Shown here in pieces: positions 9,451-58,727 of a stretch of DNA of 64,000 bases (the first letter of the stretch is position 1; each line of letters starts with the position of its first letter). A model generated the notes under the pieces. The model worked only from the letters and a program-made list of their open reading frames with translations. It was not told the origin of the DNA and ran no database searches. Source of the DNA: Candidatus Eiseniibacteriota bacterium (GTDB taxonomy: Bacteria; Eisenbacteria; RBG-16-71-46; JABDJR01); the NCBI GenBank assembly GCA_963728475.1, contig CAVSKL010000003.1, positions 393,573 through 457,572 of the forward strand, read 5' to 3'. Both the position numbers and the translations under genes were made by a program.

Positions 9451-9950
9451 TTATCTCCGCCCGCGACGTCCTGCTGTCAATCGTCGGTCTCCGGGGGGAA
9501 GGGGAGGTGGTTAGGGGCCAGTTAAGGTTCGAACCCCGCGGCGGTCGCGGCCGCTTCGAGGCCCCGCCGCTCGTGATCCGACGAGTTTGGTCCGGCACTT
9601 GGGCTTGGCCGGGCGGCCCGATCCGCCCGGCATCTCGCCCCCTTCACCTCGCCGGCCGGATCCCGGCAGCGGCCGGCCCTCGACCTTCGGGGTTTCCAGG
9701 AACTTTTCCGGCCATTTTGCCTACCATGGGTTGAACCGCCGACCGGCACCGGTTCCCACGGGCCCCTCTCTCGGGCACGGCCGAGTGCCGTGTGCGATCG
9801 GATCGGACCGATCACCGGAGCGTGCATGCTTCATGGCTCTCGCATACCCGGCGCCGGGGGGGCGGGTCCCTGCTTCGGCGGCGCTCGGACCCCGCGGACG
9901 GGCGGTCACGATAATCGGTACCGATCTCAAATGAATTTCCGGGGGGGCAC

Positions 9951-15118: not shown

Positions 15119-15191
15119 GAACGGGTTCCTCCAGGCGAGACGGGCATGAACTATAGGGCCTGGGGGGCGGGGCCAGAAGGGGAAAAGGGGA

Positions 15192-15784: not shown

Positions 15785-15807
15785 GGGACCTCGGCCTTGA
15801 CTCTATT

Positions 15808-15831
15808 GAAAATCGGGGGTAAATTTCAACA
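15808..15831. promoter_or_regulatory. Inverted repeat TTGAAA-N12-TTTCAA in a comparatively AT-rich stretch upstream of the wHTH regulator gene. Candidate operator or promoter element.
   Basis: Read directly from the sequence (ttgaaaatcgggggtaaatttcaa). Lies 25-50 nt upstream of the regulator start codon on the minus strand. Confidence 0.25.
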
Positions 15832-15965
15832 GCGGACCTCGAGATTCCCGGCCCGAGGACACCACGGTACACACCCGCCGGGGGGGGCTTCCCCCAGTCC
15901 CCCGGCGGGCGGTTTCCGAGGGTCGGGGTTTGAACGGGTTCGGGCCCAACGACTTGGGCCGCTAG

Positions 15966-16003
15966 TGAAGGGGCGGCGGTACCGTTGAGGTGCCGCCGCC
16001 CTT
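15966..16003 (-). terminator. GC-rich hairpin (13-bp stem, gggcggcggtacc / ggtgccgccgccc) just downstream of the M13 peptidase gene
   Basis: Near-perfect inverted repeat read in sequence. No U-tract follows, so confidence is low. Confidence 0.25.
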
Positions 16004-16101
16004 CCCTTGAGCTTCCGCCCGGAGAGCGGGGTCCGGCGCTCCCCGGGCTCCCAGCGCCGGGTCTTCATCCCCGGGCCTTTGTCCCTACCGGCCGGACCGC
16101 G

Positions 16102-18150
16102 CTACCAGATCACGCAGCGGCCTTCCCTGGCCATGGGTTCCCCCGGCTTCACCCCGAACGCGCGGGCGAACTCCGGAACGTTGGTCACGGTGCCGTCGAC
16201 CCGGAACCTTGCCGGGGGATGCGGGTCGGAGGTGACCTGCATCCGCAGGTACTGGGGGCGGGAGTCGGTGGCCCAGACCCGGGCGAAACCCAGGAAGAAG
16301 GTCTGGTCGGGGGTGAATCCCTTGAACATCGGTTCTTCCCCTCCGCCGGCCTCGGACATCCTGTAGGCGGTATAGGCCAGCTTGACCCCGCCCAGGTCCG
16401 CGATCGCCTCGCCAGTCACGAGCTTGCCCTGGACGTGGGCGTCGCCGTCCACCACGTAACCCGAGAACTGGTCGGCCACGCACTCGGTCGCCTTGTCGAA
16501 CCGGGCCCGGTCATCCTTGGTCCACCAGTTCTCCAGGTTCCCGAGGGCGTCGAACTGGCTCCCCTGGTCGTCGAATCCGTGGGTGATCTCGTGGCCCATC
16601 ACCGTGCCCACCGCGCCGTAGTTCCAGGCTTCCGGGGCCTGGGGATCGAAGAAGGGCGGCTGGAGTATCCCTGCCGGGAACACGATCTCGTTCATCGAGG
16701 GATTGTAGTAGGCGTTGACCGTCTGGGGGACCATGCCCCACTCGGTGCGGTCGACGGGCTTGCCGATCTTGTCCAGGTCGCGCTGGTTTTCGAACTCGCG
16801 CGAACGCATCACGTTGAGCACGTACGGCCCGCGGTCGATCTGGAGCTTGGAGTAGTCGCGCCACTTGTCCGGATACCCGATCTTCTGGTTCATCTTGGCC
16901 AGCTTTTCCTTGGCCTTGGTCCGCGTCTCCGGCCCCATCCAGCTCAACGTGTCCAGGTCGGCGGACAGCGCCCCGCGGATGGAGCGGAGGATCGCCTCCA
17001 CCCGGGACTTGGACTCCGGGGGGAAGTACTCCTTCACGAACTCCTTCCCCACCGCGAAACCCAGCACCCGGTTCTCGGTCCGCACCACGCGCTTCCACCG
17101 CTCTTGCTGCTTCTCCATCCCCATGAGCTGGCTGGCGAAGTTGAAGTCCTCATCCACGAACTTCTGGGTGAGGTAGGGCGACACCGAGGCGATGAAGTGC
17201 CACCGGAGATAGGTCTTCCAGTCCGGGAGGGCGGTGTCCTGGAGCATGGCGTTCACCGTCTTGAAGAAGTCGGGCGTACCCATGTTGACCTTGTCCGGGG
17301 TCCCCAGACCCATCCCCTGCAGGTAGGAGGTCCAGTCGAATTCGGGGGTGAGGTCGATGAGCTGCTTCACCGTCATCGGGTGGTAGGTCGCGTGGGGATC
17401 GCGCATCTCGACCGGGCGCAGGGACGAGAGGGCGAGCCGGGTCTCGATCGCCATCACCGTGTCCGCGTGCGCCCCGGCCGAGGCCTCGTCGTCCCCCAGG
17501 AGCTGGAACATCGCCGCGACGTGCTTGACGTAGTTGTCGCGGATCTCCTTGGACTTGGGGTCGTCCTTGGTGTAGTAGTCGCGGTTGCGCAGGCCCAGGC
17601 CTCCCTGGAACGCGCCGCCGATCACCTCTTCGCTGTTCTTGAAGTCCTGCATCGACCCGAAGTTGAAGGGAGCGCGCACCCCGATCATCTGGAGGTGCAG
17701 GATCTCGGCCTGGAGGTCCTTGGCGGACTTCATCGCGTCGATCCGGTCGAGTTCGGGACGCACCGGATCGAGTCCGGCGGCCTCGATGGCGGCGGAGTCC
17801 ATGCCGCTGGCATAGAAGTCGCCGATCTTCCGGGCCTCGCTCCCGGCGGCGGCGCCCCCGTTGGCGGCGGCGTCCTCGAGGATCCGGTGCACGCGCACGG
17901 TGTTGAGCTCGTTCAGCTCGGTGAACGTGCCGAAGGACGGGAATTCGGGGGGGGTGGGATGGTTCCGGATCCAGCCTCCGTCGGCGAATTGATAGAAGCT
18001 CTCGGCGGGGGAGACGGTGGTGTCCAGGTCGGCGCGGCTGAACGCGTCGGCGGAGAGATCCTTCGGTGCATCCCCGGCGGCGAAGGCCCGGGTGCCGGCG
18101 ACGAGCGCGGCACCCAGAAGGGCGAGCAAGGCAAGGTACGGTCGCTTCAT
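16102..18150 (-). CDS. M13-family zinc metallopeptidase (neprilysin/PepO-like endopeptidase), secreted
   Basis: HEITHGFDD (HExxH) and GEAIADLGG (ExxxD) motifs. Signal peptide MKRPYLALLALLGAALVAG. The track ORF extends 42 aa further upstream, without homology. Confidence 0.85.
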   Translation of the reverse strand: MKRPYLALLALLGAALVAGTRAFAAGDAPKDLSADAFSRADLDTTVSPAESFYQFADGGWIRNHPTPPEFPSFGTFTELNELNTVRVHRILEDAAANGGAAAGSEARKIGDFYASGMDSAAIEAAGLDPVRPELDRIDAMKSAKDLQAEILHLQMIGVRAPFNFGSMQDFKNSEEVIGGAFQGGLGLRNRDYYTKDDPKSKEIRDNYVKHVAAMFQLLGDDEASAGAHADTVMAIETRLALSSLRPVEMRDPHATYHPMTVKQLIDLTPEFDWTSYLQGMGLGTPDKVNMGTPDFFKTVNAMLQDTALPDWKTYLRWHFIASVSPYLTQKFVDEDFNFASQLMGMEKQQERWKRVVRTENRVLGFAVGKEFVKEYFPPESKSRVEAILRSIRGALSADLDTLSWMGPETRTKAKEKLAKMNQKIGYPDKWRDYSKLQIDRGPYVLNVMRSREFENQRDLDKIGKPVDRTEWGMVPQTVNAYYNPSMNEIVFPAGILQPPFFDPQAPEAWNYGAVGTVMGHEITHGFDDQGSQFDALGNLENWWTKDDRARFDKATECVADQFSGYVVDGDAHVQGKLVTGEAIADLGGVKLAYTAYRMSEAGGGEEPMFKGFTPDQTFFLGFARVWATDSRPQYLRMQVTSDPHPPARFRVDGTVTNVPEFARAFGVKPGEPMAREGRCVIW

Positions 18151-18320
18151 GATCTCCTCGTCGGGTGAGAGGGGGCCCCGTAGGGCTTGAGGACCAGGAG
18201 GGGAAGGCCAATAATGCCCCAGATCCCTCGGGCATGGGTATGGAAATCCGAGTCGATGCACCGGGGCCGCTTCCATGGAAGGTATGTTACGAGTTCACCG
18301 CGTAACCGGGAGGATTCGCA

Positions 18321-21300
18321 TTGAATCGAACTATGCTCGCATTTCTCTTCGCGTCGGCGGTAGCGGCCGCTCCGAACGCCGCCGCGGGAAAGGCTCCCGA
18401 GAAGGGGAAGGCGGAGGAGACCGGCCCCTGGAAGGCGGCGACCTTCACCGGCCTCGCCTTCCGGTCGATCGGCCCCGCCTTGACCTCGGGCCGTATCAGC
18501 GACCTCGCGGTGGATCCCACCAACCACGACGTCCGCTACGCCGCCGCCGCCTCGGGGGGGGTCTGGAAGACCGGGGACGCCGGCGTGACCTGGACCCCGG
18601 TCTTCGACCATGAAGGCTCCTATTCCATCGGTTGCGTGACCGTGGATCCGAACCGGCACCTCACGGTATGGGTGGGGTCGGGGGAGAACAACAGCCAGCG
18701 AAGCGTCGCCTACGGCGACGGCGTCTACCGGTCGGTGGACGGCGGGGCGAGCTGGGAGAACATGGGGCTCAAGAACTCCGAGCACATCGGAATGATCGTG
18801 GTGGACCCGCGTGGTTCCGACACGGTGTACGTGGCCGCCCAGGGCCCCCTGTGGGGACCGGGGGGCGACCGCGGCCTCTACAAGACCGTCGACGGGGGGA
18901 AGACCTGGAAGCAGGCGCTGAAGGTCGACGAGAACACCGGGGTGAGCGACATCGCGCTCGATCCGCGCGATCCCGACGTGATCTACGCCACCTCCTATCA
19001 GCGCCGGCGGCGGGTATGGACCCTGATCGACGGCGGGCCCGGCTCGGCCGTCTACAAGTCCACCGACGGCGGGGCGACCTGGAACAAGATCGACCGGGGG
19101 CTCCCCGCCGTGGATCTGGGCCGGATCGGGCTGGCGGTCTCTCCGGTGAACCCCGACGTGGTCTACGCCCTGGTCGAGGCCTCGGACGGGAAGAGCGGGT
19201 TCTACCGCTCCGAGGACGCCGGCTCCCACTGGAAGAAGCGCTCCGACTACTCCTCCTCCAGCCCGCAGTATTACCAGGAGATCGTGGCCGACCCGGTGGA
19301 CGTGGACAAGGTCTACTCCATGGACACCTTCATCATGGTGACCGAGGACGGCGGCAAGAGCTTCCACCGGATGTCCGCCCGCAACAAGCACGTGGACAAC
19401 CACCTGCTCTGGATCGATCCCACCCGTCCCGCGCACATGATCAACGGCTGCGATGGAGGGCTCTACGAGACCCGGGACGGCGGGGAGAACTGGCTCTTCT
19501 TCGCCAACCTGCCGGTGACCCAGTTCTACAAGCTGGACGTCGACAACGACCAGCCCTACTACAACGTCTACGGCGGCACCCAGGACAACAACACCCTGGG
19601 CGGCCCCTCCCGGACCGCCAGCGCCTCGGGCATCGTCAACTCCGACTGGTTCGTGACCACCGGCGGCGACGGCTTTCAGTCGCGGGTCGACCCCGCCGAT
19701 CCGGACATCGTCTACTCGGAGTCGCAGTACGGCGGCCTGGTCCGTTACGACCGCAAGAACGGGGAGCGGGTCGACATCCAGCCCCAGCCCGCGCCGGGGA
19801 AGCCCCCGCTCCGCTGGAACTGGGACTCCCCGCTCATCGTGAGCCCCCACGCCCACACCCGGATCTACTTCGCCGCCAACCGTCTGTTCCGGAGCGACGA
19901 CCGGGGCGATCACTGGACCGCGGTGAGCCCGGACCTCACCCGGCAGATCGACCGCAACCGGCTCACCGTGATGGGAAAGGTATGGACCCCGGAAGCGGTG
20001 GCCAAGGACGCCTCGACCTCGTTCTACGGCACCGTGGTCTCGCTCAGCGAGTCGCCGGCGGCCGAAGGGGTGCTCTACGCGGGCTGCGACGACGGGCTCA
20101 TCCAGGTCACCGAGGACGGCGGAAAGAACTGGCGGAAGATCGAGCGCGTGGACGGGGTCCCCGACGGGACCTACGTGAGCTATCTGGCCGCTTCCCGATT
20201 CGACGGCAACACCGTCTACGCGACCTTCGACAATCACAAGAACGCCGACTTCAAGCCCTACGTGGCCAGGAGCGCGGACCTCGGCCGTAGCTGGACCTCG
20301 ATCTCCGGCGACCTGCCCGCGCGCGGTTCCGCCTACTGTCTGGCCGAAGACTCCAAGGACCCGAACCTCCTCTTCGTGGGGACCGAGTTCGGGGTCTTCT
20401 TCACCGGCGACGGCGGCAAGCACTGGGTCCAGCTCAAGGGCGGGCTTCCGGTGATCGCGGTCCGGGACCTGGCGGTGCAGGCGCGCGAGAACGACCTGGT
20501 CCTGGCCACCTTCGGCCGCGGGTTCTACGTGCTCGACGACTACACCCCCCTCCGGGGGCTCACGCCGGCTCAGCTCGAGGCCGGCCCCGCCCTCTTCCCG
20601 GTGAAGCCGGCCTGGACCTACGTGGAGCGGCGCCCCCTGGGCGGCCGGGGGAAGGCGTCCCAGGGGGACGCGTTCTACACCGCGCCCAACCCGCCCTTCG
20701 GCGCGACCCTCACCTACTACCTGAAGGAGAAGCTCCAGACCCTCAAGGAGAAGCGCCAGGCGGAGGAGAAGAAGGCGGAGAAAGCGAAGAGCAAGGCGGA
20801 GAGCGCGCCTCCGTATCCGGGGTGGGACGAGCTGACCGCCGAGGCCCGCGAGCCGAAACCGGAGGTGCTCCTCACCGTGACCGATGAGGACAGGAACGTG
20901 GTGCGCCGGCTCACCGGGGCCACCGACTCCGGCTTCCACCGGGTGAGCTGGGATCTGCGGTATCCGCCCTCGACCCCGGTCCGCGAACCGCACGGGGGCG
21001 GCGAGGAGGAGGAATTCGGGCGCGGGCCCACCGGGCCCATGGCCGCTCCCGGACGCTACACGGTGTCCCTGGCCCGGCGGGTCGAAGGGAAGGAAACCCC
21101 GCTCGGCGAGCCGCGAACCTTCGAGGTCCGGCCGCTGGGGACCTCGACCCTGCCCCCGGCGGACCGGGATTCCCTCCTCGCGTTCGAGCGCCGGACGGCG
21201 CGCCTCCAGCGCGCGGTCCTGGGAGCGGTGCGCGCCGCCTCCGAGGCCTCGGCGCGGATCGGCGCGTTGCAACAGGCCTGGCTGGAGACCCCGAACGCCG

Positions 21301-31475: not shown

Positions 31476-31947
31476 CCCCCTCTTCCACGCCAAGCACGTC
31501 TTCCGCGCGCTCATCCTCTTCCTGCTGGGCGTGGTCGCCCTGATCGTGGTGCGGTCGCTCTTGGTGCCGCCCTCCTGGGGCGCCTACGGCCACTACCGGG
31601 GGGACAGCCCCGCGGAATACAGCGCGCTCCCGGTGAGCTACCAGGGGCCCGCCTCCTGCGCCGCCTGCCACGACGAGGAGTCCAAGGCCCGCGACGCGGG
31701 CGTCCACCACACGGTGAGCTGCGAGGTCTGCCACGCCCCCCTCGCCCGGCACGTGAAGGACGGCGACGTGATCGCGGAGATGCCGGTGGCCAAGACCGAC
31801 GCCCTCTGCCTGCGCTGCCACCTCGAGCTGGATGCGCGGCCCGCCACCTTTCCGCAGGTGCAGCCCAGGAAACACATCGAGGAGCAGGGCGGCACCGACG
31901 GCCCCACCGCCTGCTTCGACTGCCACAACCCCCATTCGCCGCTTTGA
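31462..31947 (+). CDS. Membrane-anchored tetraheme cytochrome c (NapC/NirT/NrfH-like)
   Basis: One N-terminal TM helix (ALILFLLGVVALIVV) and four CxxCH motifs (CAACH, CEVCH, CLRCH, CFDCH) within ~110 aa. GAGG RBS before the ATG. Confidence 0.8.
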   Translation: MRPDSPLFHAKHVFRALILFLLGVVALIVVRSLLVPPSWGAYGHYRGDSPAEYSALPVSYQGPASCAACHDEESKARDAGVHHTVSCEVCHAPLARHVKDGDVIAEMPVAKTDALCLRCHLELDARPATFPQVQPRKHIEEQGGTDGPTACFDCHNPHSPL

Positions 31948-31976
31948 GCGAGGCCACTCCGATGGAGGATCGCACC

Positions 31977-32774
31977 ATGTCCGATGAATGCAACCGGATT
32001 GGAACCGAGGCTCCGGCGGCCCCTCCCTCCCGGCGGGATTTCCTGAGACGGGCGGCGGCGGCCGCGGCCACCATGGCCGCCTACGGGGTGGTGGGACTCA
32101 TTCTCCCCGACGACGCGGCCGGGCTCGAGACCGCCGGCTACGACTGGAACCAGCACACCTGGGTCTACCTCATCGACACCACCAAGTGCATCGGCTGCGG
32201 CTCGTGCGTGCGGGCGTGCCGGGAGGAGAACGACGTTCCCGAGGGCATGTTCCGCACCTGGGTCGAGCGCTACGAGATCCCGGTGAACGGCGAGACGAGG
32301 GTGGACTCGCCCGACGGCGCCGCCGAGGGATTCGGCCCCGACGCCTCCGGCAACGCGGTGCGCAAGGCCTTCTTCGTGCCCAAGATGTGCAACCACTGCC
32401 GCGAGACCCCCTGCATCCAGGTCTGCCCGGTGGGCGCCTCCTATCGCACCCGGGACGGAGTGGTGCTGGTGGACAAGACCCACTGCATCGGCTGCGGCTA
32501 CTGCGTGCAGGCCTGCCCCTACGGGAGCCGGTTCCTGGATCCGCGCACCCGCACCGCCGACAAGTGCACCTGGTGCTACCACCGGATCACCAAGGGGCTG
32601 AAGCCGGCCTGCGTGGAGGTCTGCCCGGTGGGAGCGCGCATGTTCGGCGACCGCCGGAACCCCGACGATCCCATCAACGACATCCTGGCCACCAAGCGCG
32701 TGATGGTCCTGCAGCCCGAGCTCTTGACCAAGCCGCAGTGCTTCTACCTGGGTCTGGACATGGAGGTCCGGTGA
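31977..32774 (+). CDS. Tat-exported 4Fe-4S ferredoxin-type subunit (NrfC/PsrB/HybA family)
   Basis: Twin-arginine signal SRRDFLRRAAAAAATMAAYG. Four Cys clusters (CIGCGSCVRACREEN, CNHCRETPCIQVCPVGA, CIGCGYCVQACPYG, CTWCYHRITKGLKPACVEVCPVGA). Alternative starts at 31944 and 31962. Confidence 0.85.
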   Translation: MSDECNRIGTEAPAAPPSRRDFLRRAAAAAATMAAYGVVGLILPDDAAGLETAGYDWNQHTWVYLIDTTKCIGCGSCVRACREENDVPEGMFRTWVERYEIPVNGETRVDSPDGAAEGFGPDASGNAVRKAFFVPKMCNHCRETPCIQVCPVGASYRTRDGVVLVDKTHCIGCGYCVQACPYGSRFLDPRTRTADKCTWCYHRITKGLKPACVEVCPVGARMFGDRRNPDDPINDILATKRVMVLQPELLTKPQCFYLGLDMEVR

Positions 32775-33961
32775 TGATTCCCGAGCTGACCGGTTATCTC
32801 TTTCCCAACGACATCCACATCCAGTGGAGCCTGATGATCGTGCTCTACCCCTACATCACCGGGCTGGTGGCGGGCGCGTTCTTGGTCTCCTCGCTCTACC
32901 ACGTGTTCGGAAAGAAGGAGTTCGAGCCCCTGGGCCGGTTCGCCCTGGCCACCGCCTTCTGCTTCCTGCTCGTGGCCACCTTTCCCCTCCTCAACCACCT
33001 TGGGCATCCGGAACGGGCGTTCAACGTGGTGGTCACCCCCAACTTCTCCTCGGCCATGGCCGGGTTCGGAATCCTCTACACCAGCTACTTCCTGCTGCTG
33101 CTGCTGGAAATCTGGTTCGTGTTCCGGGGGGACATTGTGGCGCGGGCGGTGGAGGGGCGCGGTCTCAAGCGGGCGTTCTACTCGGTGCTCGCCCTCGGGG
33201 TCTACGACGTTTCGCCCAAGGCTCGGGACCTGGACCGCCGGATCATCCGGGTGCTGGCCGCGGTGGGGATCCCCGCCGCCTGCCTGCTCCACGGCTACGT
33301 GGGCTTCATCTTCGGCGCGCTCAAGGCCAACCCCTGGTGGTCCACCCCGCTCATGCCGGTGATCTTCCTGTTCTCGGCCATGGTCTCGGGGATCGCGCTC
33401 CTTATCGTGCTCTACCAGGTGGCGATGAGGCTCAAGGGCTGGCCCATCGACCAGGCCGCGATCTCGGCCCTGGCTCGGTGGCTATGGCTCTTCCTCATCA
33501 TGACCGTGACCCTGGAACTCCTCGAGATCATGACCCTGAGCTACATGAAGGCGGAATCGTGGGAGGTGATCAGCCACCTTCTCACCCACCAGCTCTCGAT
33601 CTCGTTCATCGCCATCCAGATGGTACTGGGTGGGCTTATCCCGCTGATCCTGCTCATGTTCGTGGTGCTCCTGGACCGCTACATGCATCCGACGATCCGG
33701 AACACGCTCACCTTCATCTCGTCCTCGATCCTCCTGGTCCAGGTGATCTCCATGCGCTGGAACGTGGTGATCGGCGGCCAGATGTTCTCCAAGAGCATGC
33801 GCGGCTTCCGCGAGGCCTACGTGCCCGGCCTTTTCGACAAGGAGGGGATCGCGGCGGCGGTGGTCATCCTCATCCTGCCCTTCATCCTGCTCCTGGTGTT
33901 CGAACGGGTGCTGCCGACTTTTTCGCACCTCAACCCGCCGGCCGGAGCCCCGGAAGCCTGA
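32774..33961 (+). CDS. NrfD/PsrC-family integral membrane quinone-interacting subunit
   Basis: ~395 aa, 8-10 TM helices, the N-terminal MIPELTGYLFPNDIHIQWSLMIVLYPYITGLVAG is typical of NrfD/PsrC. ATG overlaps the upstream stop (TGATG). Confidence 0.85.
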   Translation: MIPELTGYLFPNDIHIQWSLMIVLYPYITGLVAGAFLVSSLYHVFGKKEFEPLGRFALATAFCFLLVATFPLLNHLGHPERAFNVVVTPNFSSAMAGFGILYTSYFLLLLLEIWFVFRGDIVARAVEGRGLKRAFYSVLALGVYDVSPKARDLDRRIIRVLAAVGIPAACLLHGYVGFIFGALKANPWWSTPLMPVIFLFSAMVSGIALLIVLYQVAMRLKGWPIDQAAISALARWLWLFLIMTVTLELLEIMTLSYMKAESWEVISHLLTHQLSISFIAIQMVLGGLIPLILLMFVVLLDRYMHPTIRNTLTFISSSILLVQVISMRWNVVIGGQMFSKSMRGFREAYVPGLFDKEGIAAAVVILILPFILLLVFERVLPTFSHLNPPAGAPEA

Positions 33962-42463: not shown

Positions 42464-42625
42464 CGCAGGCGAGGCGAGAGACTTCTCTACCCACTCCCAC
42501 GCATCCCCGCGTCGCGTGGCGGCCGATGGCACGAGCCGCCTCTCCGGCCGGCCGCGCGTCGTCGCCCCCTAGCACGCAATGGCGCGAACCTTCTGCGCAC
42601 CCGGGTGCGCATGGCGCGCTCGGCA

Positions 42626-42639
42626 TTTCCCCGGGGAAA
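42626..42639. repeat. Perfect 14-bp palindrome TTTCCCCGGGGAAA (copy 1 of 2; second copy at ~57126-57139)
   Basis: Read in sequence. Intergenic, between the convergent GH57 gene and the decayed lipoprotein gene. A separate palindrome gcgcacccgggtgcgc lies ~25 nt upstream. Confidence 0.3.
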
Positions 42640-42679
42640 CGGGGCTCGATCGGGGACCCTCGGCTGGTTCGCGGGGCGG

Positions 42680-44359
42680 TCAGGGTGAGCAGCCGGGGGT
42701 GGTGAAGGCGCCGATCTTCAGGGCGTCGGACAGGGCGGGGGAATCGCTCCGCACGTGGAAGTCATCGTTGGCGGGATCACAGAAGAGGGGATCGGCGAAG
42801 AGATTCGCGGACTGCCAATTAGGAAAGCAGCCGAGGGGATCATCCACATCTGAGGGAGTGTTGAACCAGAAGATGTTCTTGGTAAGTCGCACATTAGGGT
42901 TTAGCCAGAATCGACATACCACGCCGCATCCTTGACCGAGAGCGAACACGTTTTGGGTGATGGTGATTGCCTTGGGGTCAAGGGTGCTGACGAGGACTTG
43001 TCCCCCGCTGCAACTTGAGATCCCTGTCCCTATGTTGCCGACAAATGTGTTGTTGGCTATGACCCCCGACCAGCCCCGCATGGAGATCGCGCCCCCAGTA
43101 TCCGGACCTTGAGGTGTGTCTTGTCCATGGGCCTCGTTTCTCACGAACAAATTCTTCCGGATAGTGAGTGGAGGGGACTGGTAACCTTGCTGGCCCGCCT
43201 CAATCCCGCCTCCATGGTCTCCGGCGATATTCCCCCAGAACTCGCTATTGGAAATACGGGCCGTACCCGGCTCGCTCATAAAGACATAGATTGCTCCACC
43301 GTCATATTGGCATTGGTTTTCACGAGAACCAGCTGCTCGGCTTCGCCAGACAGCTTGGGGGTGAGCGAGACACCTACCGTGGCAGCCTGAACCCAGGTGG
43401 CATCAGTGATGGCGGCCTCGGCGTAGCGGACCAGGTAGGCGGCCGCTCGCCCTTCCTCCCCATCATCGCCCGGCGCCGTCCAGGACAGGGTTGCCGTGAA
43501 AGGACTGGTCGTCGCAACCGCGAGATCGGTGATGGCGGCGGGAGGGACCGTATCCGGCGGAAGAGCCACCACGGCATCGTTAAAGATAGGACCGAGTAGG
43601 CCCGCGTCGTCGACCGCTCGGACCGCGAAGTGAAGGGTTTCGCCGGGATCGAGCCCCGCGACCTGAATCGTCTCCGCAGCCCCGGCTGTCAGGGGCACTT
43701 GGGTCACCTCGAAGGGTGTCGCCGTGTCCCAGGTGGCCTCGGTGATCGCGGTAGCGGCGTAGCGAACCAAGTAAGCAGCCGCCCGCCCCAGGTTGCCGTT
43801 GTCCCCGGGCGCAGTGAACGCCAGGGTGACGGCATGGGGGGTCGGATTCTCCGTGTGGAGATCAGCAACCCGCCCCGGCGGGGTCAGGTCGCCGGTCTCG
43901 GCCTCGACGACGTTCGAGAGCCCCGACACGTTCCCCGCCTCGTCCAACGTCTCCAGCGCGAAGTAGTAGGGCACCAGCCGGGCCAGCGGGCCAACCCTCA
44001 CGGAATCCCCCGGCCGGCGGGCTGCGGAGACGGCAAACCCGTGACCACCGTGGCCGAGTCCCAACCGGTGGCAAGCGGCTGCAACGAGTAGCGAAGGTCG
44101 TAGCGGGCGGCTGGCCCTGCGAGCCGTCATCCCCCGGAGCGGTCCACGTGAGGGTGACGGTGCTGTCGGTGGCCGCGGCTACGGTTAGGTCGGTCACCGC
44201 CGCGGGTGGGGTCGCGTCCGGCGCGGCCGACTTGCCGCAGCCCGCGATCCACAGAACGCCGATCGCCAACGCGAAGCAAAGCGGAAGCGCGGCCCACGCG
44301 AAACGGCGCACCGATCGCGTTCGTGCCGTCGCAACTGTCCATCGTCGGTCCGCGGCCAT
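42680..44359 (-). pseudogene. Decayed gene for a lipoprotein with three Fn3-like repeats followed by a right-handed parallel beta-helix (pectate-lyase-fold) domain, broken by at least three frameshifts and one internal stop
   Basis: Lipobox MAADRRW...LWIAGCGK. Repeat units TLTWTAPGDDG / TLAFTAPGDNG / TLSWTAPGDDG ... AAAYLVRYA ... YYFALETLDEAGNVS are spread over three reading frames (track ORFs 43862..44512, 43276..44130, 42680..43279). The beta-helix part reads ...DGGAIYVF... The region is ~10 % lower in GC than the flanks. Confidence 0.5.
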
Positions 44360-44640
44360 CCCCACAATCCCCCCCCGCGCCTCGATCCCGCCGCCCAACC
44401 GCAGCGGGAACGGGCACCGCCGGGGCATGATACCAGCCAGGCCCGGTCGGCAACGGGGGCGCCCCCGGCCGGCCGCGCCCTGTCCGGTCTGCCGCGTACT
44501 CGGGTAGTTCATTGTTACACATCACTATACGTGGACAGGCGGCCCGGTCCCGCTGGTTCGTCCAACCGGCCACGATTCATCTCTAAACGGCCACACTCTG
44601 TGGTAGTATGGCCACATACTGTGGCCCTGGAGGCGAGCCC

Positions 44641-44979
44641 ATGACCCCGATGCTGATCGCGCTTTTCGGCAGCAAGTCCGCTGCCCAGACCCTCCTCTTC
44701 CTTCAGAACTACGGCGAGGGACACGCGCGCCGGATCGCCGCCACCTTCGGCGTCTCCCATATGGGGATCCAGCGGCAGTTGAGGCGGCTCGAAGCCGACG
44801 GCATCCTGGTCTGCCGCCTTGTCGGGAACACCCGGGTGTTCACCTGGAATCCGCGAAGCGCGACGGTCACGAACCTGCGCGCGTTTCTGGAGGCCGAATT
44901 GGATCGTTTGCCGCCCGAGGTGACGCGGGCGTACTTCCGGCAGCGACAGCGCCCGCGCCGGAGCGGCAAGGCCGGATAG
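44641..44979 (+). CDS. Small winged-helix DNA-binding protein (putative antitoxin / AbiEi-like partner of the downstream nucleotidyltransferase)
   Basis: 112 aa with wHTH core ...RRIAATFGVSHMGIQRQLRRLEADGILV.... GGAGG RBS 7 nt before the ATG. 4-nt gap to the next gene. Confidence 0.45.
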   Translation: MTPMLIALFGSKSAAQTLLFLQNYGEGHARRIAATFGVSHMGIQRQLRRLEADGILVCRLVGNTRVFTWNPRSATVTNLRAFLEAELDRLPPEVTRAYFRQRQRPRRSGKAG

Positions 44980-44982
44980 CCG

Positions 44983-45525
44983 ATGTCCATCAACCGGAAC
45001 ACCACGATCATCGAGCTGGCGGCCCGCGTCAGCCAGAGTCTCCAGGACGCGGGCATCAGGGCGACGCTCTCCGGCGGCGGTGCCGTGTGTGTGTACACCG
45101 ACAACGAGTATCAATCCAGCGATCTGGATTTCGTCACCGCGGCGTCGCGAGACCGCTTGTCCGCAGCCTTGGCGCCTCTCGGCTTCGCCCTGGCACGCGG
45201 CCGGCGCCACTTCACCCATCCGGACACCGACCTGTTCCTGGAGTTTCCGGCGGGCCCTCCCCAGTTCGGGGATCGGGTCGTGCCGCACGACGAAATCCCC
45301 GTGCTCGAAACCCGGTGGGGTCCGCTTCGCGTTATCACCCCGACCCAGTGCGTGATGGACCGGCTCGCCGCATTCTGGCACTGGAGCGATCGCCAGTCCT
45401 GGGATCAGGCCGTCCTGGTGGCGCGCCACCGGGATGTGGACTACGAATCGCTCGCCGAATACGCTCATGAAGAAGGAGCCGACCCTAGAGACATCGACCG
45501 ACTGCGCCGGAAGGCCGGCCGGTGA
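44983..45525 (+). CDS. Nucleotidyltransferase-fold protein (putative toxin of an AbiEii / type IV TA-like pair)
   Basis: NTase motifs LSGGGAVCVY and SSDLDFV (hG[GS] ... DxD). 180 aa. Immediately downstream of the small wHTH gene, inside the lower-GC island. Confidence 0.45.
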   Translation: MSINRNTTIIELAARVSQSLQDAGIRATLSGGGAVCVYTDNEYQSSDLDFVTAASRDRLSAALAPLGFALARGRRHFTHPDTDLFLEFPAGPPQFGDRVVPHDEIPVLETRWGPLRVITPTQCVMDRLAAFWHWSDRQSWDQAVLVARHRDVDYESLAEYAHEEGADPRDIDRLRRKAGR

Positions 45526-45671
45526 GGCAGGGCCCCCCGTGGCGGGGGCCTCCGTCCAGCTCGCCGGGGGTCGAGCGATTCCGCGCCCTCCTCTAGACTG
45601 AAACCTTCCGGCGCGCCGATCGAAGGTGGCGGCTTGCCGTTCACCCGCGCCCGCCGCACGGAAAGGAACCG

Positions 45672-46337
45672 ATGGCCGACCGCACCGCCTACTGGCCGCG
45701 ACTCACCTGGCTCGCGCTCTTCGGCGCCGCCTTCGGCTTCGTTGAAGCCGCGGTGGTGATCTACCTCCACCGCATCTATTACCCGGCCGGCTTCGGTTTC
45801 CCCCTCATCCTCCCCGAGCTGCCGCTCCTCAAGGTGGAACTCGCCCGCGAGCTCTGCACCCTGGTCATGCTGCTCGCGGTGGCCATGCTCGCCGAGCGCC
45901 GTGCGTGGGCGCGCTTCGGCGTCTTCTGCTTCCTCTTCGGGGTATGGGACCTGGTCTACTACCTGGGCCTGTGGTGGGCGATCGGGTGGCCGCCCAGCCT
46001 CTGGACCTGGGACGCGCTCTTCCTGCTTCCCACCCTGTGGGTCGGCCCGGTGTTCACCGCGGTGGCGGTGGCGGCCAGCCTCACCGTGGCCGGCGCGATC
46101 ATCGTCCGCAAGAGCGCCGACCGCCGTCCCTACACCCCATGGTGGGTGTGGCTGGGGTCGGCGGGCGCTTTCGCGCTCCTCCTGGTCGCGTTCATGGGCG
46201 ACGAGGCCTCGGTGCGGGCCACGGGGACGCCCCACGACTTTCCGTGGGCGCCGTATCTCATCGGGCTCGTGCTGGGCTGGGCGATGTTCGGGACGGCGTT
46301 CCTCTCGCTCCGGACGGAGTATTCGCCGGAACCGTGA
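45672..46337 (+). CDS. Hypothetical polytopic membrane protein (6 predicted TM helices, Trp-rich)
   Basis: Track ORF with an AAGGAA RBS. Hydrophobic segments throughout; no recognisable catalytic motif. Confidence 0.55.
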   Translation: MADRTAYWPRLTWLALFGAAFGFVEAAVVIYLHRIYYPAGFGFPLILPELPLLKVELARELCTLVMLLAVAMLAERRAWARFGVFCFLFGVWDLVYYLGLWWAIGWPPSLWTWDALFLLPTLWVGPVFTAVAVAASLTVAGAIIVRKSADRRPYTPWWVWLGSAGAFALLLVAFMGDEASVRATGTPHDFPWAPYLIGLVLGWAMFGTAFLSLRTEYSPEP

Positions 46338-46347
46338 GCGAAAGCGC

Positions 46348-47046
46348 TCAGTCCTCCCCCGGCGCCGGAGGCGGCGACCCGAGGATCCACAAGAGCTCGG
46401 CCAGGACCATGGCGGTGGCGCCCCAGAGCTTCTCGCCCTCCAGGTCGAAGTAGGGGATGCGCACCTGGCGGTCCTGGAGGATCCGGATCTCGGATCGGAG
46501 CCGCTCGCGGCCGATGAGGTGGGAGAGAGGAATCATGAGAATCCGCTCCACCTCGGCCGGGTTGGGGCGCACCTCGGGGGTGAACGGGCTCACCCCGACG
46601 AAGGGATGAAGCAGGAACCCGCTCACCGGAATGTAGACCGGGGAGAGCGCGCCCAGGAGTCTCACTTTGGCGGTGTCGAGCCCGACCTCCTCCCGCGCCT
46701 CGCGTAAGGCGGCCTGGTTCAGCGCTTCGCCCGGCTCCACCACGCCGCCGGGGAGCGAGAGCTGCCCGCGATGGCTGGGCAGATCGCGGCTCCGCACCGT
46801 GAGCAGGAGGTACGGTACCTCGCCCCGGGGATAGAGGAGCAGGAGCGCGGCCGCGGGGCGGACCGTTTCGTCCGAAGGGGGAAAGACGGGGCGGGGCCTC
46901 GGGCGCATCCGCTCGTGGGCCCGGGGGCCGGGGAGGGGCGCGCGAAGGGCGTCCTCCAGCCCGTGAACGATGTGCTGAAAGGGCTCGCGTCCCGGCGACG
47001 GGCTCCGTTCGGCGGGGTTTTTCCCTGGCGGCATGAAAACGAGCAT
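46348..47046 (-). CDS. NUDIX hydrolase (CoA pyrophosphatase-like)
   Basis: Nudix box GQLSLPGGVVEPGEALNQAALREAREEVGL. Start placed at MLVFM (GGGGGG RBS); alternative at 46908. The remainder of the 551-aa track ORF overlaps a plus-strand esterase gene and is judged spurious. Confidence 0.7.
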   Translation of the reverse strand: MLVFMPPGKNPAERSPSPGREPFQHIVHGLEDALRAPLPGPRAHERMRPRPRPVFPPSDETVRPAAALLLLYPRGEVPYLLLTVRSRDLPSHRGQLSLPGGVVEPGEALNQAALREAREEVGLDTAKVRLLGALSPVYIPVSGFLLHPFVGVSPFTPEVRPNPAEVERILMIPLSHLIGRERLRSEIRILQDRQVRIPYFDLEGEKLWGATAMVLAELLWILGSPPPAPGED

Positions 47047-47244
47047 AGCCCAATCCCCCCGCGCGGGGTGAGACGGATCGGATCGCGCCCCGGGGCTTGG
47101 CGAGGCGGGTGACGCCGGCGCCGCCCAAGTAACCGCAGGGGCCTTGTCCCCCCGCGCGGCGCGAGGCGGATGACGCCGGCGCCGCCGATGGGCTATGGTC
47201 GGCCCCTCGTAGGACGCCGGGAGGGACCGCAGGTGGCCGAACCG

Positions 47245-47931
47245 ATGCTCGACTGCGTGGAAATCGAACCCGAGGCTCCGGCCGGCGCCTCGGTGCTGTG
47301 GCTCCACGGCCTGGGGGCCGACGGCCACGACTTCGTGCCCATCGTACCGCTCCTGGGTCTCCCCCCGGAGCTGAGGGTGCGCTTCGTGTTCCCGCACGCG
47401 CCCAGGATGCCGGTCACCATCAACATGGGGATGGTGATGCGGGCCTGGTACGACATCTCGGCGCTGGACCTGCGCGAGGAGCAGGATGAAGCGGGGGTCC
47501 GCCGCTCCGCGGAGCAAGTCGAGCGGCTCCTGGACCGCGAAGCCGAACGTGGGGTGGCTCCGGAGCGCACGGTGCTGGCCGGCTTTTCGCAGGGCGGGGT
47601 GATCGCGCTGCACGCCGGGCTCCGCCGGCCGCAACCCCTGGCCGGGATCCTGGCGCTGTCCACCTACCTGGCCCTGGACGCGGCGCTGGAGGCCGAGGGC
47701 GCCCCCGCCGGCCGGTCCACCCCGGTCTTCATGGGCCACGGCCGCTACGATCCGGTGGTCCCCCTCGAGCGGGGGCGGGCGTCGCGGGACCGGCTTCTGG
47801 AGGCCGGCCACCGGGTGGAGTGGCGCGAGTACGACGTGGAGCACGGGGTGGCGCCGGACGAGATCGCCGACGTGGGGGCCTGGCTCGTCCGGGTGCTGAA
47901 TATCGGAACCCCGGGGGCGGGTTCTTCGTAG
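47245..47931 (+). CDS. Alpha/beta-hydrolase carboxylesterase/phospholipase family protein
   Basis: ...VLWLHGLGADGHDF... and nucleophile elbow GFSQGG. ~228 aa from MLDCVEIEP. Confidence 0.8.
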   Translation: MLDCVEIEPEAPAGASVLWLHGLGADGHDFVPIVPLLGLPPELRVRFVFPHAPRMPVTINMGMVMRAWYDISALDLREEQDEAGVRRSAEQVERLLDREAERGVAPERTVLAGFSQGGVIALHAGLRRPQPLAGILALSTYLALDAALEAEGAPAGRSTPVFMGHGRYDPVVPLERGRASRDRLLEAGHRVEWREYDVEHGVAPDEIADVGAWLVRVLNIGTPGAGSS

Positions 47932-47978
47932 TCCGGAGCACGAACGGGCCGAAGTCCGGCCCGCGGGAGGATTCGCGC

Positions 47979-48722
47979 TTGGTCCAGGAAGCAGGCATCG
48001 CACTCCGCACCTATCTCGCCCCGCTCTCGTCGTTCCGGGGACTGAGGAAGGGGAGCTTGGTGGCCGGGATCGCGGTGTTCCTCACCGCGGCCGCGTTCGT
48101 CCTCAGCAAGCTTCTCCCCTCGGTGTTCGGCGGTCTTCTCGGGGCGCTCCGGGGGTCGGTGATCGTCCCGGGGGTGCCCCTGGCCGCGGTCCTGGTGAGC
48201 GAGATGGCGCTCCGGGAGGGGATCACCCATCGCACCCTCCTGTACCCGCTTCTCGGCCCGGTGTCCCGGCCGATGACCGCAGTGGTGCGGACGATCGCCA
48301 CCGGACTCCTGCTCGCGCTGGGGACGTCGTTGTTCCTGGTGCTGGTGGTGGCGCTCGACGGCGAACCCTGGACGGCGGTTCCCCGGGATCTGGCCGCGAT
48401 CCTCTGCGGCTCGCTCGCCTACACCGCGCTTTTCGGGTTCCTGCACCTGGTCTCCCGCCGGGGGTTGGTGGTGGGGCTGGTGGTCTATTTCCTGGGCGAC
48501 CAGCCCCTGGCCCAGCTCCCCTTCCTGCTCCGGCGGCTCTCTCCGTCCTATCACCTGAGCGTGATGGCCGACCGGGTGATCGAGATGCGCCTCCCGGTGA
48601 GCTTCCCCCCTCCCGAACCGCACAAGTTCGCCTCGGGGCTGGTGCTGGTGGCGGTGGCGGCGGCGCTGACCGCGCTCACCGCCTGGCTCTTCCGCCGGAA
48701 GGCGCTGGGAGAGCTCTGCTGA
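47979..48722 (+). CDS. ABC-2-type transporter permease (first half-transporter)
   Basis: Six predicted TM helices. TTG start 7 nt after a GGGAGGA RBS. Its stop overlaps the ATG of the following ABC ATPase. Confidence 0.5.
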   Translation: MVQEAGIALRTYLAPLSSFRGLRKGSLVAGIAVFLTAAAFVLSKLLPSVFGGLLGALRGSVIVPGVPLAAVLVSEMALREGITHRTLLYPLLGPVSRPMTAVVRTIATGLLLALGTSLFLVLVVALDGEPWTAVPRDLAAILCGSLAYTALFGFLHLVSRRGLVVGLVVYFLGDQPLAQLPFLLRRLSPSYHLSVMADRVIEMRLPVSFPPPEPHKFASGLVLVAVAAALTALTAWLFRRKALGELC

Positions 48723-57228: not shown

Positions 57229-58727
57229 ATGAGATTCCGTTCGCTGGCCGCCCTCGTCCTGGTGACGATCCTCGTCGCCGTCAGCTCCGCGGGCGCGGCC
57301 GAATTCGACGAGCTGAAGTCGGAGATCAAGAGCTTCACCCTTCCCAACGGGTTGACCTTCGTGGTCCTGGAGCGGCACGACGCCCCCGTGTTCTCCTTCC
57401 GGACCTACGTGAACGCCGGCGGGGTGGACGAGGTGACGGGGATCACCGGCGTGGCCCACATGTTCGAGCACATGGCCTTCAAGGGCACGCAGACCGTGGG
57501 CACCACCGACTACAAGGGTGAGAAGAAGGCCATGGACGCGGTGGACGCGGCGTGGCAGAAGGTGTCGGACGAGCTGGACAAGGGAGCCGCGGCCGACACC
57601 GTCAAGCTCGCCGGGCTCCGCGCCGATTTCAAGGATGCCCAGGCCGAGGCGCGGAAGTACGTGGTCTCGAACGCCTACAGCAAGACCCTGGAGGAGAACG
57701 GCGCGGTGGGGCTCAACGCCTCCACCTTTACCGACTGGACCCAGTACTACTACAGCCTGCCCTCCAACCGGCTGGAGCTGTGGGCGCGGCTCGAGGGGAC
57801 CGCCTCACCAACCCGGTGCTGCGCGAGTACTACACCGAGCGCGACGTGGTCTACGAGGAGCGCCGGCTCCAGGAGTCCAGCCCCACCGGCCGGCTCTTCC
57901 TGAACTGGATCTCCTCGGCCTACTTCGCCCACCCCTACGGCGTGGGCGGGGTAATCGGCATCGCCTCGGACCTCAAGCGCATCACCCGGGACGACGCCCG
58001 GACGTTCTTCGCCCGCAACTACGTGGCCTCCAACATCTCGGTCGCGGTGGTGGGAGACGTCAAGTTCGACGACGTCAAGCGGTACGCCGAGAAGTATTTC
58101 TCGGGGGTTCACTCCGGGCCCAAACCGCCGCCCCTGCGGTCGGTGGAGCCGCGCCACGAGGCCGAGGTGCGGGTGATCCGCCACGACGACGCCCAGCCCC
58201 TGCTCCTGGTGGGCTACCACATCTGCAGCCGCAAGGACCCGGACTGGTACGCCACCGAGCTTCTCGCCGACATCGCCGGCGGCGGGCGCTCCAGCCGTCT
58301 CTACGACCGGCTGGTGAAGAAGGACAAGATCGCGGCCCAGGCCGGTTCCGGAGCCGGCTTCCTGGGCAATAAGTACCCGGCGCTGCTGGTGGTGCAGGCA
58401 CTGGTGGCCAAGGGCTCCACCACCGATCAGGTGGAGGACGCGACCTACGAGGAGTTGAAGCGGCTGGCCGACGAGGGTCCGACCCAGGCCGAACTCGACA
58501 AGGTGAAGACCGAGGACCGGGCATCCTTCATTCGCGGGCTCCGCTCCAACATGGGATTGGCCGGACAGCTCGCCGAGGCCCAGGGCAAGCTCGGTGACTG
58601 GCATGCCATGTTCGAGTACCTGGACGGCATCAACGCGGTCACCGTCGAGGACGTCCAGCGCGTGGCCGCCGAGACCTTCCGTCCCGGGAACCGGGTGGTC
58701 GGCCTCATCGAGAAGCCCCAGTCATGA
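57229..58727 (+). CDS. M16-family (pitrilysin/insulinase-like) zinc peptidase. The reading frame shifts at a G4 run (~57795-57798), splitting it into track ORFs 57115..57903 and 57552..58727.
   Basis: Signal peptide MRFRSLAALVLVTILVAVSSAGAA. Inverted zinc motif HMFEHMAFKG (HxxEH). Translation continues colinearly in the +1 frame (...LELWARLEG | DRLTNPVLREYYTERDVVYEERRL...). Confidence 0.7.

Follow-up and report, generated by a model that had tools for sequence, protein, structure and literature searches.

The closest systems to the locus described here belong to a family of uncharacterised lipoproteins that combine three Fn3 domains with a right-handed beta-helix and are encoded in Eisenbacteria/Zixibacteria-type genomes (P0138 and its relatives P0145, P0146, and P0168). 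P0138, the intact homologue to which we compare the locus, has 760 aa and is encoded at positions 7608-9890 of locus L085 (JGI metagenome 3300057004, contig Ga0568869_0003290); it was found by an exhaustive protein search, which yielded 600 homologues, and a word-indexed search missed it. Its lipoprotein signal is followed by three Fn3 domains and a beta-helix, with matches to the Pfam models fn3 and Beta_helix, and further family members of 757-781 aa present the same architecture. Next to its gene lie phage terminase genes, a fragment of an integrase, and four helix paralogues in tandem. Both the intact lipoproteins of this type and tandem secreted helix paralogues are common in these genomes.

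A second related system is the decayed helix fragment of L081/L082/L083 (P0124), which is the closest relative of the helix piece found in this work: the two align without gaps over 565 nt at 78% nucleotide identity and are 79% identical in amino acids. This fragment has a GC content of 0.58 within DNA of ~0.70 GC and lies in a mobile-element-rich neighbourhood, its low GC being shared with our locus. It is truncated at the 5' end beside higBA, contains an in-frame TAA where our locus has CAA (Gln), and is cut at the 3' end by an IS that carries an rve transposase. Unlike the copy described below, it has no Fn3 part. Here we analyse that copy, which lies in a stretch of 64 kb (the window) from an Eisenbacteria genome.

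The gene and its intact homologue

The gene runs on the minus strand from 44359 to 42680, and its lipoprotein signal, Fn3 repeats, and beta-helix tail are readable only through frames 0, 2, 1, 0 (three-frame translation). The original prediction, which was made from the sequence alone, had described one ancestral gene with precisely these parts that could only be followed across several frames, and both points were borne out: a GC3 frame plot gave the same order of frames along the minus strand, and P0138 has exactly this architecture. In tblastn searches with intact homologues, collinear pieces were found in the three frames; for Fn3 repeat 1, the P0005 matches fall in frames -1, -3, and -2 and follow one another in protein order. 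Frame 1 is open for 244 codons (44007-43276), its stop codon being 43276-43278, and frame 0 is open for ~214 codons in DNA of 57% GC, for which we calculated a chance probability of ~4e-4. The coordinates of all features are collected in Table 1.

Table 1. Features of the lipoprotein-gene remnant, its lesions, and the surrounding insertion (window coordinates).
Feature	Position	Strand	Remarks
Segment 1	44359 to ~44111	-	frame 0; signal peptide, lipobox IAGC, start of Fn3 repeat 1
Segment 2	~44111 to ~44007	-	frame 2
Segment 3	~44007 to 43324	-	frame 1; end of Fn3 repeat 1, Fn3 repeat 2, first two thirds of Fn3 repeat 3
Segment 4	43318 to 42683	-	frame 0; beta-helix; stop codon 42680-42682
Signal peptide and lipobox (…VLWIAGC)	44237..44359	-	frame 0; Cys41 = 44239-44237; translation
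Fn3 repeat 1	43891..44224	-	split over frames 0, 2, 1; tblastn with P0005
Fn3 repeat 2	43558..43890	-	frame 1, intact
Fn3 repeat 3	43324..43557	-	frame 1; N-terminal two thirds only
Beta-helix, C-terminal 212 codons and stop codon	42680..43318	-	frame 0; lowest-GC stretch of the window
Shift site 1	44110..44111	-	one base (G) missing; window CAG-CCGCC, L085 CAGGCCGCC; nucleotide alignment
Shift site 2	44007..44011	-	one base missing in or beside G5 run (CGGGGG-ATTCC)
Deletion junction	43319..43323	-	5 nt filler (GTGAA); nucleotide alignment to L085
Lineage-specific 3.2-kb insertion	42464..45671		between GH57 gene (stop 42463) and membrane-protein gene (start 45672)
Winged-HTH gene	44608..44979	+	first cassette gene; weak Pfam GntR and MarR_2 matches
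180-aa protein gene	44983..45525	+	second cassette gene

The N-terminus has the properties of a lipoprotein processed by signal peptidase II, that is, a basic N-terminus, a hydrophobic core, and a lipobox of the form [LVI][ASTVI][GAS]C, assessed by eye: it reads …RSVRRFAWAALPLCFALAIGVLW-IAGC-GKS, its Cys occupies the same place in the homologues, and the whole signal aligns with those of P0138 (LLFVTAC) and P0005. Three Fn3 repeats follow, as predicted, with a period of ~110-112 aa according to the DNA repeat spacing (333-336 nt) and not of ~95 aa. Once two single bases are restored, the Pfam fn3 model (PF00041) matches in two stretches with 53.3 bits (cut-off 25), and the best match extends over both shift sites (residues 54-153 of the repaired protein). 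The 216-aa tail is matched by Beta_helix (PF13229; 29.8 bits vs 25.9), beside weak Pfam matches to NosD, DUF5123, and Disaggr_assoc. The 199-aa ORF at 42680-43279 starts at an internal Met codon of this helix.

The alignment to an intact homologue that the original prediction had called for gave two blocks. The repaired window protein matches residues 12-330 of P0138 with 0 gaps and 71% identity, and the alignment then skips to residues 546-760 (61-63% identity), up to closely similar C-termini (…GAYDTPGCGP in P0138, …GAFTTPGCSP in the window ORF). Homology in the third Fn3 repeat ends at …SGEAEQ(L/M)VL, residue 328 of P0138, which agrees with the predicted truncation of the last Fn3. The two copies share the signal, the lipobox, the Fn3 domains, the helix C-terminus (DPLFCDP…DDYHVRSDSPAL…PGC), and a step in GC content. 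The differences are that residues 329-550 of P0138 are missing from the window copy, that its frame is broken at up to three places, and that its neighbour is an HTH/180-aa cassette. The window copy is not collinear over the full length with the P0138 type, in which the signal precedes three complete Fn3 domains and an entire helix of ~400 aa; the feature is a remnant of such a member and not an intact one.

Lesions in the gene

The largest lesion is the deletion junction, where L085 8592-9257 (666 nt, encoding P0138 residues 329-550; breakpoints 8591/9258) has no counterpart in the window. The net loss at 43324/43318 is ~661 nt, out of frame, and takes the end of Fn3 repeat 3 together with the first ~180 helix residues. 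The original prediction had noticed the missing Fn3 end and had missed the lost helix residues; of the frame changes that it took for frameshifts, two are indeed single-base shifts and the third is this junction. Logan contig L093, from a second assembly (run ERR11718636), reproduces the junction at 100% identity. Overall, Logan contigs are identical to the window (100%) over 43561-37680 and 44150-48525, junction and 199-aa ORF included, and the 588 nt that hold both single-base shifts (43562-44149) fall outside both contigs. An intact homologue exists and the out-of-frame deletion is present in two assemblies, as expected of a pseudogene, and we consider this deletion of ~661 nt to be, decisively, the main inactivating lesion.

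Relative to L085, the Fn3 part has a dS of 0.49 and the helix part one of 2.1, a difference that could also be explained if the junction were a recombination joint between two family members rather than a simple deletion, the remnant then being a mosaic. The helix part is in fact nearer to the L081-L083 fragment (79% amino-acid identity, dS 1.3) than to P0138 (62%), and the tandem helix paralogues that follow the intact gene in L085 are also in line with such an origin. However, the best match among the five helix domains of L085 is that of the Fn3-helix gene (62% vs 29-46% for the others), the intact gene has the same GC step, and the higher GC3 of the Fn3-coding part probably limits change at synonymous sites and so makes dS look smaller. 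We therefore regard a mosaic as rather unlikely, and a simple deletion as the preferred reading of the junction.

A very improbable alternative is that the present arrangement is functional, in which case an Fn3 lipoprotein of reduced length and a 199-aa helix protein, coupled to it in translation, would both be expressed and maintained by selection. Both frames are open over long stretches with low dN/dS (0.08 for the helix vs L081, 0.23 for the Fn3 part vs L085), a stop/start overlap ATGA is present at 43276-43279, and ORFs were called at the remnant by the source annotation and by the Logan gene caller. Nevertheless, Fn3 repeat 3 has lost its last strands and the helix its N-terminal cap, ~8 coils, and the signal peptide. 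The ATG of the 199-aa ORF goes back to a Met codon inside the ancestral gene, which P0138 and L081 have as well, and the overlapping TGA is accounted for because ATGAGC contains TGA automatically. In addition, the low dN/dS comes from comparisons with distant relatives and is mostly a legacy of the period that preceded inactivation. Inactivation by the deletion thus remains the reading that we follow.

The other two lesions lie in Fn3 repeat 1. Restoring a G at site 1 yields GQAARYDL, a string present in P0021, and restoring one base at site 2 yields …AGRGDSVRVGPL…, in gapless alignment with P0138. There is some chance, clearly below even, that both shifts are consensus errors of long-read sequencing (Nanopore homopolymer or motif errors). 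The gene would then encode, up to 43276, a lipoprotein of 361 aa that contains 2.6 Fn3 domains, with the 199-aa helix ORF after it, and it would be truncated by the 661-nt deletion regardless. This possibility is suggested by an M16 peptidase gene in the window, which looks functional and has a deletion of the same type, one G in a G-run at ~57798 (CTCGAGGGG-ACC): it keeps an intact HxxEH motif, and, once repaired, its product can be aligned with PDB entry 3amj without a break at the shift junction. All of the single-base lesions (3/3) are deletions adjoining G or C runs. Moreover, restored site 1 would read CCAGG, and methylated CCAGG is a known motif for Nanopore base-calling errors. The source contig is 908,743 bp long, and the nearest relatives are Nanopore-only MAGs that received one round of Medaka polishing (PMC12313526).

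On the other hand, our frame scan revealed only one other frameshift in ~60 kb, a syntenic stretch of 22 kb shows no frame change relative to L001, and 10.2 kb of Logan contig sequence is 100% identical to the window. At the rate of the scan, two independent errors 104 nt apart would be very unlikely unless errors cluster, and both shifts sit in a gene that the deletion had already inactivated. Two of the three other same-strand frame changes flagged by the codon scan, at ~50.45 kb and ~52.65 kb, were explained by ordinary neighbouring genes.

We see next to no likelihood that the frame changes are regulatory, by phase variation through G-run slippage or by programmed frameshifting, as the position of site 2 in a G5 run of a surface-lipoprotein gene might suggest. 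G5 is shorter than typical contingency tracts, site 1 lies outside any long run, and no Rfam element is present. A regulatory reading would further require three shifts, all in the same direction, and the 661-nt deletion takes essential parts whatever the frame. The two single-base shifts are therefore best taken as either real, secondary deletions or sequencing errors, in a gene inactivated by the larger deletion.

The insertion and its composition

The two genes that flank the locus, a GH57 gene and a membrane-protein gene, are orthologous in two related Eisenbacteria genomes, where they are separated by 34 nt (L001) and 22 nt (L002), and in the window they are 3.2 kb apart. From this we conclude that the window carries a 3.2-kb insertion that is absent from both syntenic relatives; the window is otherwise collinear with L001 from 29.7 to 51.5 kb. 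The insertion contains the lipoprotein-gene remnant and a widespread, self-contained two-gene cassette, in which a winged-HTH protein with a weak PADLOC match to PDC-M05A (E=4e-7) is followed by a 180-aa protein that has no match in Pfam, NCBIfam, PADLOC, or PDB. The latter has 509 homologues; the best 120 are 61-75% identical to it and come, apart from the source genome, from at least two named gammaproteobacterial lineages. The pairing of both genes, with an identical spacing of 3 nt, recurs in unrelated genomes. When the pair was compared with toxin-antitoxin and defence modules, weak matches were obtained for the HTH protein alone.

Hallmarks of mobility were not detected: there is no integrase among the ORFs of the insertion, no tRNA gene in the window, and no convincing direct repeat flanking the insertion, and scans of the region for Rfam families, tRNAs, promoters, and terminators gave nothing relevant. 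A 16-nt inverted repeat (42538-42553 and 45513-45528) was considered as a terminal repeat and set aside, because, by our own estimate, chance alone would give ~0.6 pairs of this kind in 3.5 kb of DNA with this composition. We did not find an ortholog with more than 80% nucleotide identity, an exact match of the junction 30-mer in JGI metagenome contigs, or any hit in a protein-guided scan of the same contigs. When IMG/VR was scanned with P0138, only three distant Fn3 matches and zero helix matches were obtained, so that a phage origin of the remnant is unsupported.

The locus had been originally predicted to be a low-GC island extending from ~42.7 to ~44.4 kb. The window indeed has its lowest 600-nt GC here (0.56 at 42801-43400, against a mean of 0.698 with sd 0.038, z ~-3.7), but the strong drop covers only the helix-coding part, ~42.6-43.7 kb, and from 43.75 to 44.4 kb the GC is 0.72-0.74, average or above. 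The tetranucleotide comparison proposed as a check of this claim gave only a slight deviation (~z=2) at the 1.5-kb scale. The helix piece has a GC of 0.57 and a GC3 of 0.65, with GC3 values of 0.74-0.90 in the Fn3 part, 0.81-0.85 in the cassette, and 0.90-0.92 in the flanking genes. In the P0138 gene, too, the GC is 0.64-0.71 where Fn3 is encoded and falls to 0.53-0.63 where the helix is encoded. As the intact homologue has the same step, the dip belongs to the gene family, and low GC by itself is no evidence of a foreign island. Horizontal acquisition, the other half of the prediction, is in line with other data: the insertion is missing from L001 and L002, its GC3 is below that of the host, and a native codon model scored 42.4-44.7 kb as almost wholly non-coding.

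The beta-helix fold

The helix domain of the homologue P0130 is predicted to be a right-handed beta-helix (pLDDT 81.2, pTM 0.86). Foldseek comparisons of this model with lyases, hydrolases, and tailspikes gave E values of about 9e-4 to 1e-1, 9-15% identity, and TM scores of 0.2-0.46; PL6 chondroitinase B (1dbg/1ofm), PL6 alginate lyases, GH87, and P22-type tailspikes resemble it in fold class only. No family model of polysaccharide lyases (PL1, PL6, or PL9) or of glycoside hydrolases matches the beta-helix tail. The earlier suggestion of an adhesin or polysaccharide lyase thus amounts to an analogy at the level of the fold, by which the ancestral protein may have acted on a surface or extracellular polysaccharide.

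Discussion

The data presented here make it likely that this locus is the remnant of an inactivated surface-lipoprotein gene, located in a 3.2-kb insertion and broken by an internal, out-of-frame deletion of ~661 nt. The ancestor was a protein of ~760 aa in which a signal peptide with lipobox preceded three Fn3 domains and a ~400-aa right-handed beta-helix. The deletion joins the middle of Fn3 repeat 3 to the middle of the helix, and because of this fusion translation of the Fn3 part stops 16 codons beyond the junction, leaving a helix tail without signal peptide and without its N-terminal half. The two single-base deletions in Fn3 repeat 1, if real, would break the frame again. The gene probably came intact by horizontal transfer and then decayed in place, a sequence of events that we can only infer because no close ortholog (>80% nucleotide identity) was found. 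The long open frames 1 and 0, together with the low dN/dS, suggest that the decay is recent.

It could be speculated, with very little expectation, that breakage and re-joining of helix-coding pieces is a recurrent event in this family, as in the Fn3 fusion described here, the fragment cut by a TA system and an IS in L081-L083, and the tandem paralogues beside phage genes in L085, and, from the open frames and low dN/dS, that such fragments could constitute a reservoir for recombinational variation of surface beta-helices, or that the 199-aa tail could be expressed alone.

With regard to annotation, the locus merits the label of one pseudogene, instead of the two or three hypothetical ORFs recorded (P0001, 241 aa; P0121, 133 aa). 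It also illustrates that a GC dip within a gene may simply characterise the family to which it belongs and does not necessarily mark the edge of an island and, as the M16 peptidase case indicates, that single-base frameshifts at G/C runs in long-read MAGs cannot be called pseudogenising without read support. The remnant adds nothing on the function of the family and has little import beyond annotation.

Finally, the locus can be compared with ordinary bacterial pseudogenes found in strain-specific insertions. In these, as here, an indel and point frameshifts affect a non-essential surface-protein gene; as here too, the remnant lies in DNA that is absent from relatives and beside a small mobile cassette. 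We find no substantive difference between them, and the locus is a common case of gene decay, not a novel system.

Reading frames and lesions of the remnant

Three-frame translation of 44650-42550 resolved the remnant, which lies on the minus strand, into four coding segments, and the GC3 frame plot gave the same order of frames. When the two missing single bases were restored, Pfam fn3 scored 53.3 bits (cut-off 25) in a match spanning both shift sites, and the tail matched Beta_helix with 29.8 bits (cut-off 25.9), besides DUF5123 below threshold and Disaggr_assoc right at its cut-off. These analyses confirmed the original prediction of an Fn3/beta-helix gene that can be read only across frames, with its extents corrected.

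The nearest Fn3 homologues in a word-indexed search (P0005, P0021, and P0027; 49-54% identity) all have a lipoprotein signal and three Fn3 domains followed by a beta-helix start, RTWEVRVDGTGDAPTIQAGIDS…VLVDPGTYYEN, and tblastn mapped them onto the window in three collinear frames. An exhaustive search with the helix tail as query found P0138, an intact homologue of 760 aa encoded at locus L085 (a JGI metagenome contig), the last 211 residues of which match the tail end to end (63%). According to Pfam, P0138 and further family members of 757-781 aa contain fn3 plus Beta_helix. Residues 12-330 of P0138 are 71% identical to the repaired window protein with zero gaps and residues 546-760 are 61% identical, while at the DNA level L085 7683-8591 and 9258-9845 match window 44230-43324 (77%) and 43318-42725 (67%), respectively.

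Nucleotide alignment with L085 revealed three lesions. The third frame change, previously taken for another frameshift, is in fact the junction of a deletion with a net loss of 661 nt, which is out of frame and removed P0138 residues 329-550, comprising the last strands of Fn3 repeat 3 and about the first 180 helix residues.

Features of the remnant, its relatives and its surroundings (window coordinates unless a locus is named)
Feature	Coordinates	Strand	Details
Segment 1, frame 0		minus	MAADRRW…FAWAALPLCFALAIGVLWIAGCGKS…TVTLTWTAPGDDGSQGQ
Segment 2, frame 2		minus	AARYDLRYSLQPLATGWDSATVVTGLPSPQPAGRG
Segment 3, frame 1		minus	DSVRVGPL…, complete Fn3 repeat 2, then first 2/3 of Fn3 repeat 3, ending …SGEAEQLVLVKTNANMTVEQSMSL (stop)
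Segment 4, frame 0 again		minus	…ENQCQYDGGAIYVFMSEPGTARISNSEFWGNIAGDHGGGIEAG… to …IGAFTTPGCSP (stop)
Lesion 1, one G missing	44111/44110		CAG-CCGCC in window, CAGGCCGCC in L085
Lesion 2, one base missing	44011-44007		G5 run; alignment to L085
Lesion 3, deletion	L085 8592-9257 absent		5 nt filler in place; alignment to L085
Logan contig L093	43561-37680
Logan contig L092	44150-48525
Winged-HTH gene	44608-44979	plus	Cassette gene 1
180-aa protein gene	44983-45525	plus	Cassette gene 2; G..x..DLD motif
HTH/180-aa pair elsewhere	L089 3659-4552; L091 3659-4549		HTH proteins of 112-123 aa, window copy included
L081 fragment	3176-4070 (L081)		Also in L082 and L083

Reliability of the single-base shifts

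Two contigs from the Logan assembly of run ERR11718636 are 100% identical to the window, so that a different assembler arrived at the same deletion junction, frame-1 stop, and 199-aa ORF. The contigs leave 43562-44149 uncovered, and both single-base shifts fall there. Their ends at 43561 (L093) and 44150 (L092) are conserved Fn3 motifs, PPDTVPPAAITDL and TWTAPGDDG, and suggest k-mer branching by paralogues that share exact k-mers in the genome or in the sample.

A frame scan detected one further frameshift in the window. The M16 zinc-peptidase gene at 57229-58727 (plus strand) keeps its HxxEH motif intact and is divided between two frames at about 57795-57800, which a single G missing from CTCGAGGGG-ACC explains. 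The repaired product aligns continuously with PDB entry 3amj across the junction, and the break is a consensus error of long-read assembly or else a second pseudogene. The nearest relatives are Microflora Danica MAGs, which are Nanopore-only assemblies with one round of Medaka polishing (PMC12313526), and the source contig is of 908,743 bp. The two single-base shifts may therefore be consensus errors, and the gene-decay reading is open to a partial explanation by assembly error. However, we consider this unlikely, as two errors only 104 nt apart would be improbable when the background is about one in 60 kb and both shifts lie in an already dead gene. Whatever they prove to be, the locus is a remnant because of the deletion.

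Composition

GC falls to its minimum for the window at 42801-43400 (0.56 over 600 nt; z about -3.7) and is 0.72-0.74 at 43.75-44.4 kb, so the dip is confined to the helix-coding part. GC3 is 0.90-0.92 in the flanking host genes, 0.81-0.85 in the HTH/180-aa cassette, 0.74-0.90 in the Fn3 parts, and 0.65 in the helix tail, and a codon model trained on the long genes of the window scored nearly all of 42.4-44.7 kb as non-coding. The intact L085 gene has the same internal step (the Fn3-coding part has GC 0.64-0.71 and GC3 0.68-0.82, the helix-coding part GC 0.53-0.63 and GC3 0.56-0.70), and GC is 0.57-0.61 in the four helix paralogues that follow it in tandem. The dip thus comes with the gene family and does not point to a separate origin for the helix piece. 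The original prediction was largely right but incomplete: the deletion escaped it, and it took for an island signal a dip that in itself does not indicate foreign DNA.

Two other segments of the window are of note. The second-lowest GC (0.585-0.61) is at 6001-6900; the native codon model gives low scores over 5.9-11.7 kb, possibly a further atypical segment. The region 31944-33961 (plus strand; GC 0.62-0.65) has the second-highest tetranucleotide deviation and is very strongly conserved in the related Eisenbacteria locus L001 (about 78-81% in the best-matching frames, less in others). Coding seems to switch frame at about 32.76 kb in both, which may mean that two genes adjoin there or that a frame change has been conserved.

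History and relatives of the gene

Stop codons are absent from both long frames and dN/dS is low (0.08 for helix vs L081, 0.23 for Fn3 vs L085, and 0.15 for helix vs L085), suggesting that most of the divergence arose under selection and that the inactivation is probably recent. A mosaic produced by recombination may underlie the unequal dS to L085 (0.49 for Fn3 vs 2.1 for helix), or this difference may stem from codon-usage constraint in the GC-rich part; we find an origin by recombination quite improbable.

The closest relative of the helix piece (78% nucleotide identity; loci L081-L083) is itself a fragment: its 5' end is truncated beside higB/higA, an in-frame TAA stands in place of the Gln codon of the window, and an IS carrying an rve transposase cuts its 3' end. 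As it is identical in three samples, its decay is real. The intact L085 gene has an integrase fragment on one side and phage terminase, ParB, and methyltransferase genes on the other; an IMG/VR scan gave no phage link for the family. Downstream of the intact gene, and within the same flanking genes, L085 10441-15560 encodes four secreted beta-helix paralogues in tandem (412-430 aa). All four have a signal peptide and share a C-terminal tail (…PGC…VPVExTTWGQIKARYR), conserved among them and absent from the lipoprotein form.

Insertion site and cassette

The remnant is an ordinary decaying gene that shares a small lineage-specific insertion (42464-45671) with a two-gene cassette. The neighboring GH57 gene has its best genome matches in Candidatus Eisenbacteria MAGs, and L001 is collinear with window 29.7-51.5 kb. 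From the GH57 stop to the start of the membrane-protein gene there are 34 nt in L001, 22 nt in the related locus L002, and 3.2 kb in the window. L001 and L002 have insertions of their own (13423-16543, 3.1 kb, and 13322-18804, 5.5 kb; window counterpart 46049-46360) between the membrane-protein and NUDIX genes, one gene further on, so the site is a variable spot and a local hotspot where gene content changes. Neither a tRNA gene nor an integrase nor direct repeats at the flanks were found to mark the 3.2-kb insertion. Close within each end of the insertion is one arm of a 16-nt inverted repeat (42538-42553 and 45513-45528, 15/16 complementary). Chance would yield about 0.6 pairs of this kind at such a composition, but the placement of this one is suggestive.

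The 180-aa protein has no match in Pfam, NCBIfam, or PDB. It has 509 homologues, none with a Pfam domain, and the best 120 of the 509, named gammaproteobacterial ones included, are 61-75% identical. In two other genomes (L089 and L091) the HTH partner is found 3 nt upstream in unrelated contexts, and the HTH protein gives a weak match to PDC-M05A, a PADLOC candidate. The pair could be an uncharacterized toxin-antitoxin or defence-like module.

Function of the ancestor

The helix homologue P0130 was modelled as a right-handed beta-helix (pLDDT 81, pTM 0.86), and from this fold and the Fn3 spacers a putative polysaccharide-active surface enzyme is a reasonable guess for the ancestor. Foldseek against PDB returned only generic beta-helix proteins, with E between 1e-3 and 1e-1 and identities of 9-15%. 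Among them are Rhombotarget A, chondroitinase B and alginate lyases of PL6, tailspikes, and GH87, and the likeness to them is that of a generic beta-helix.
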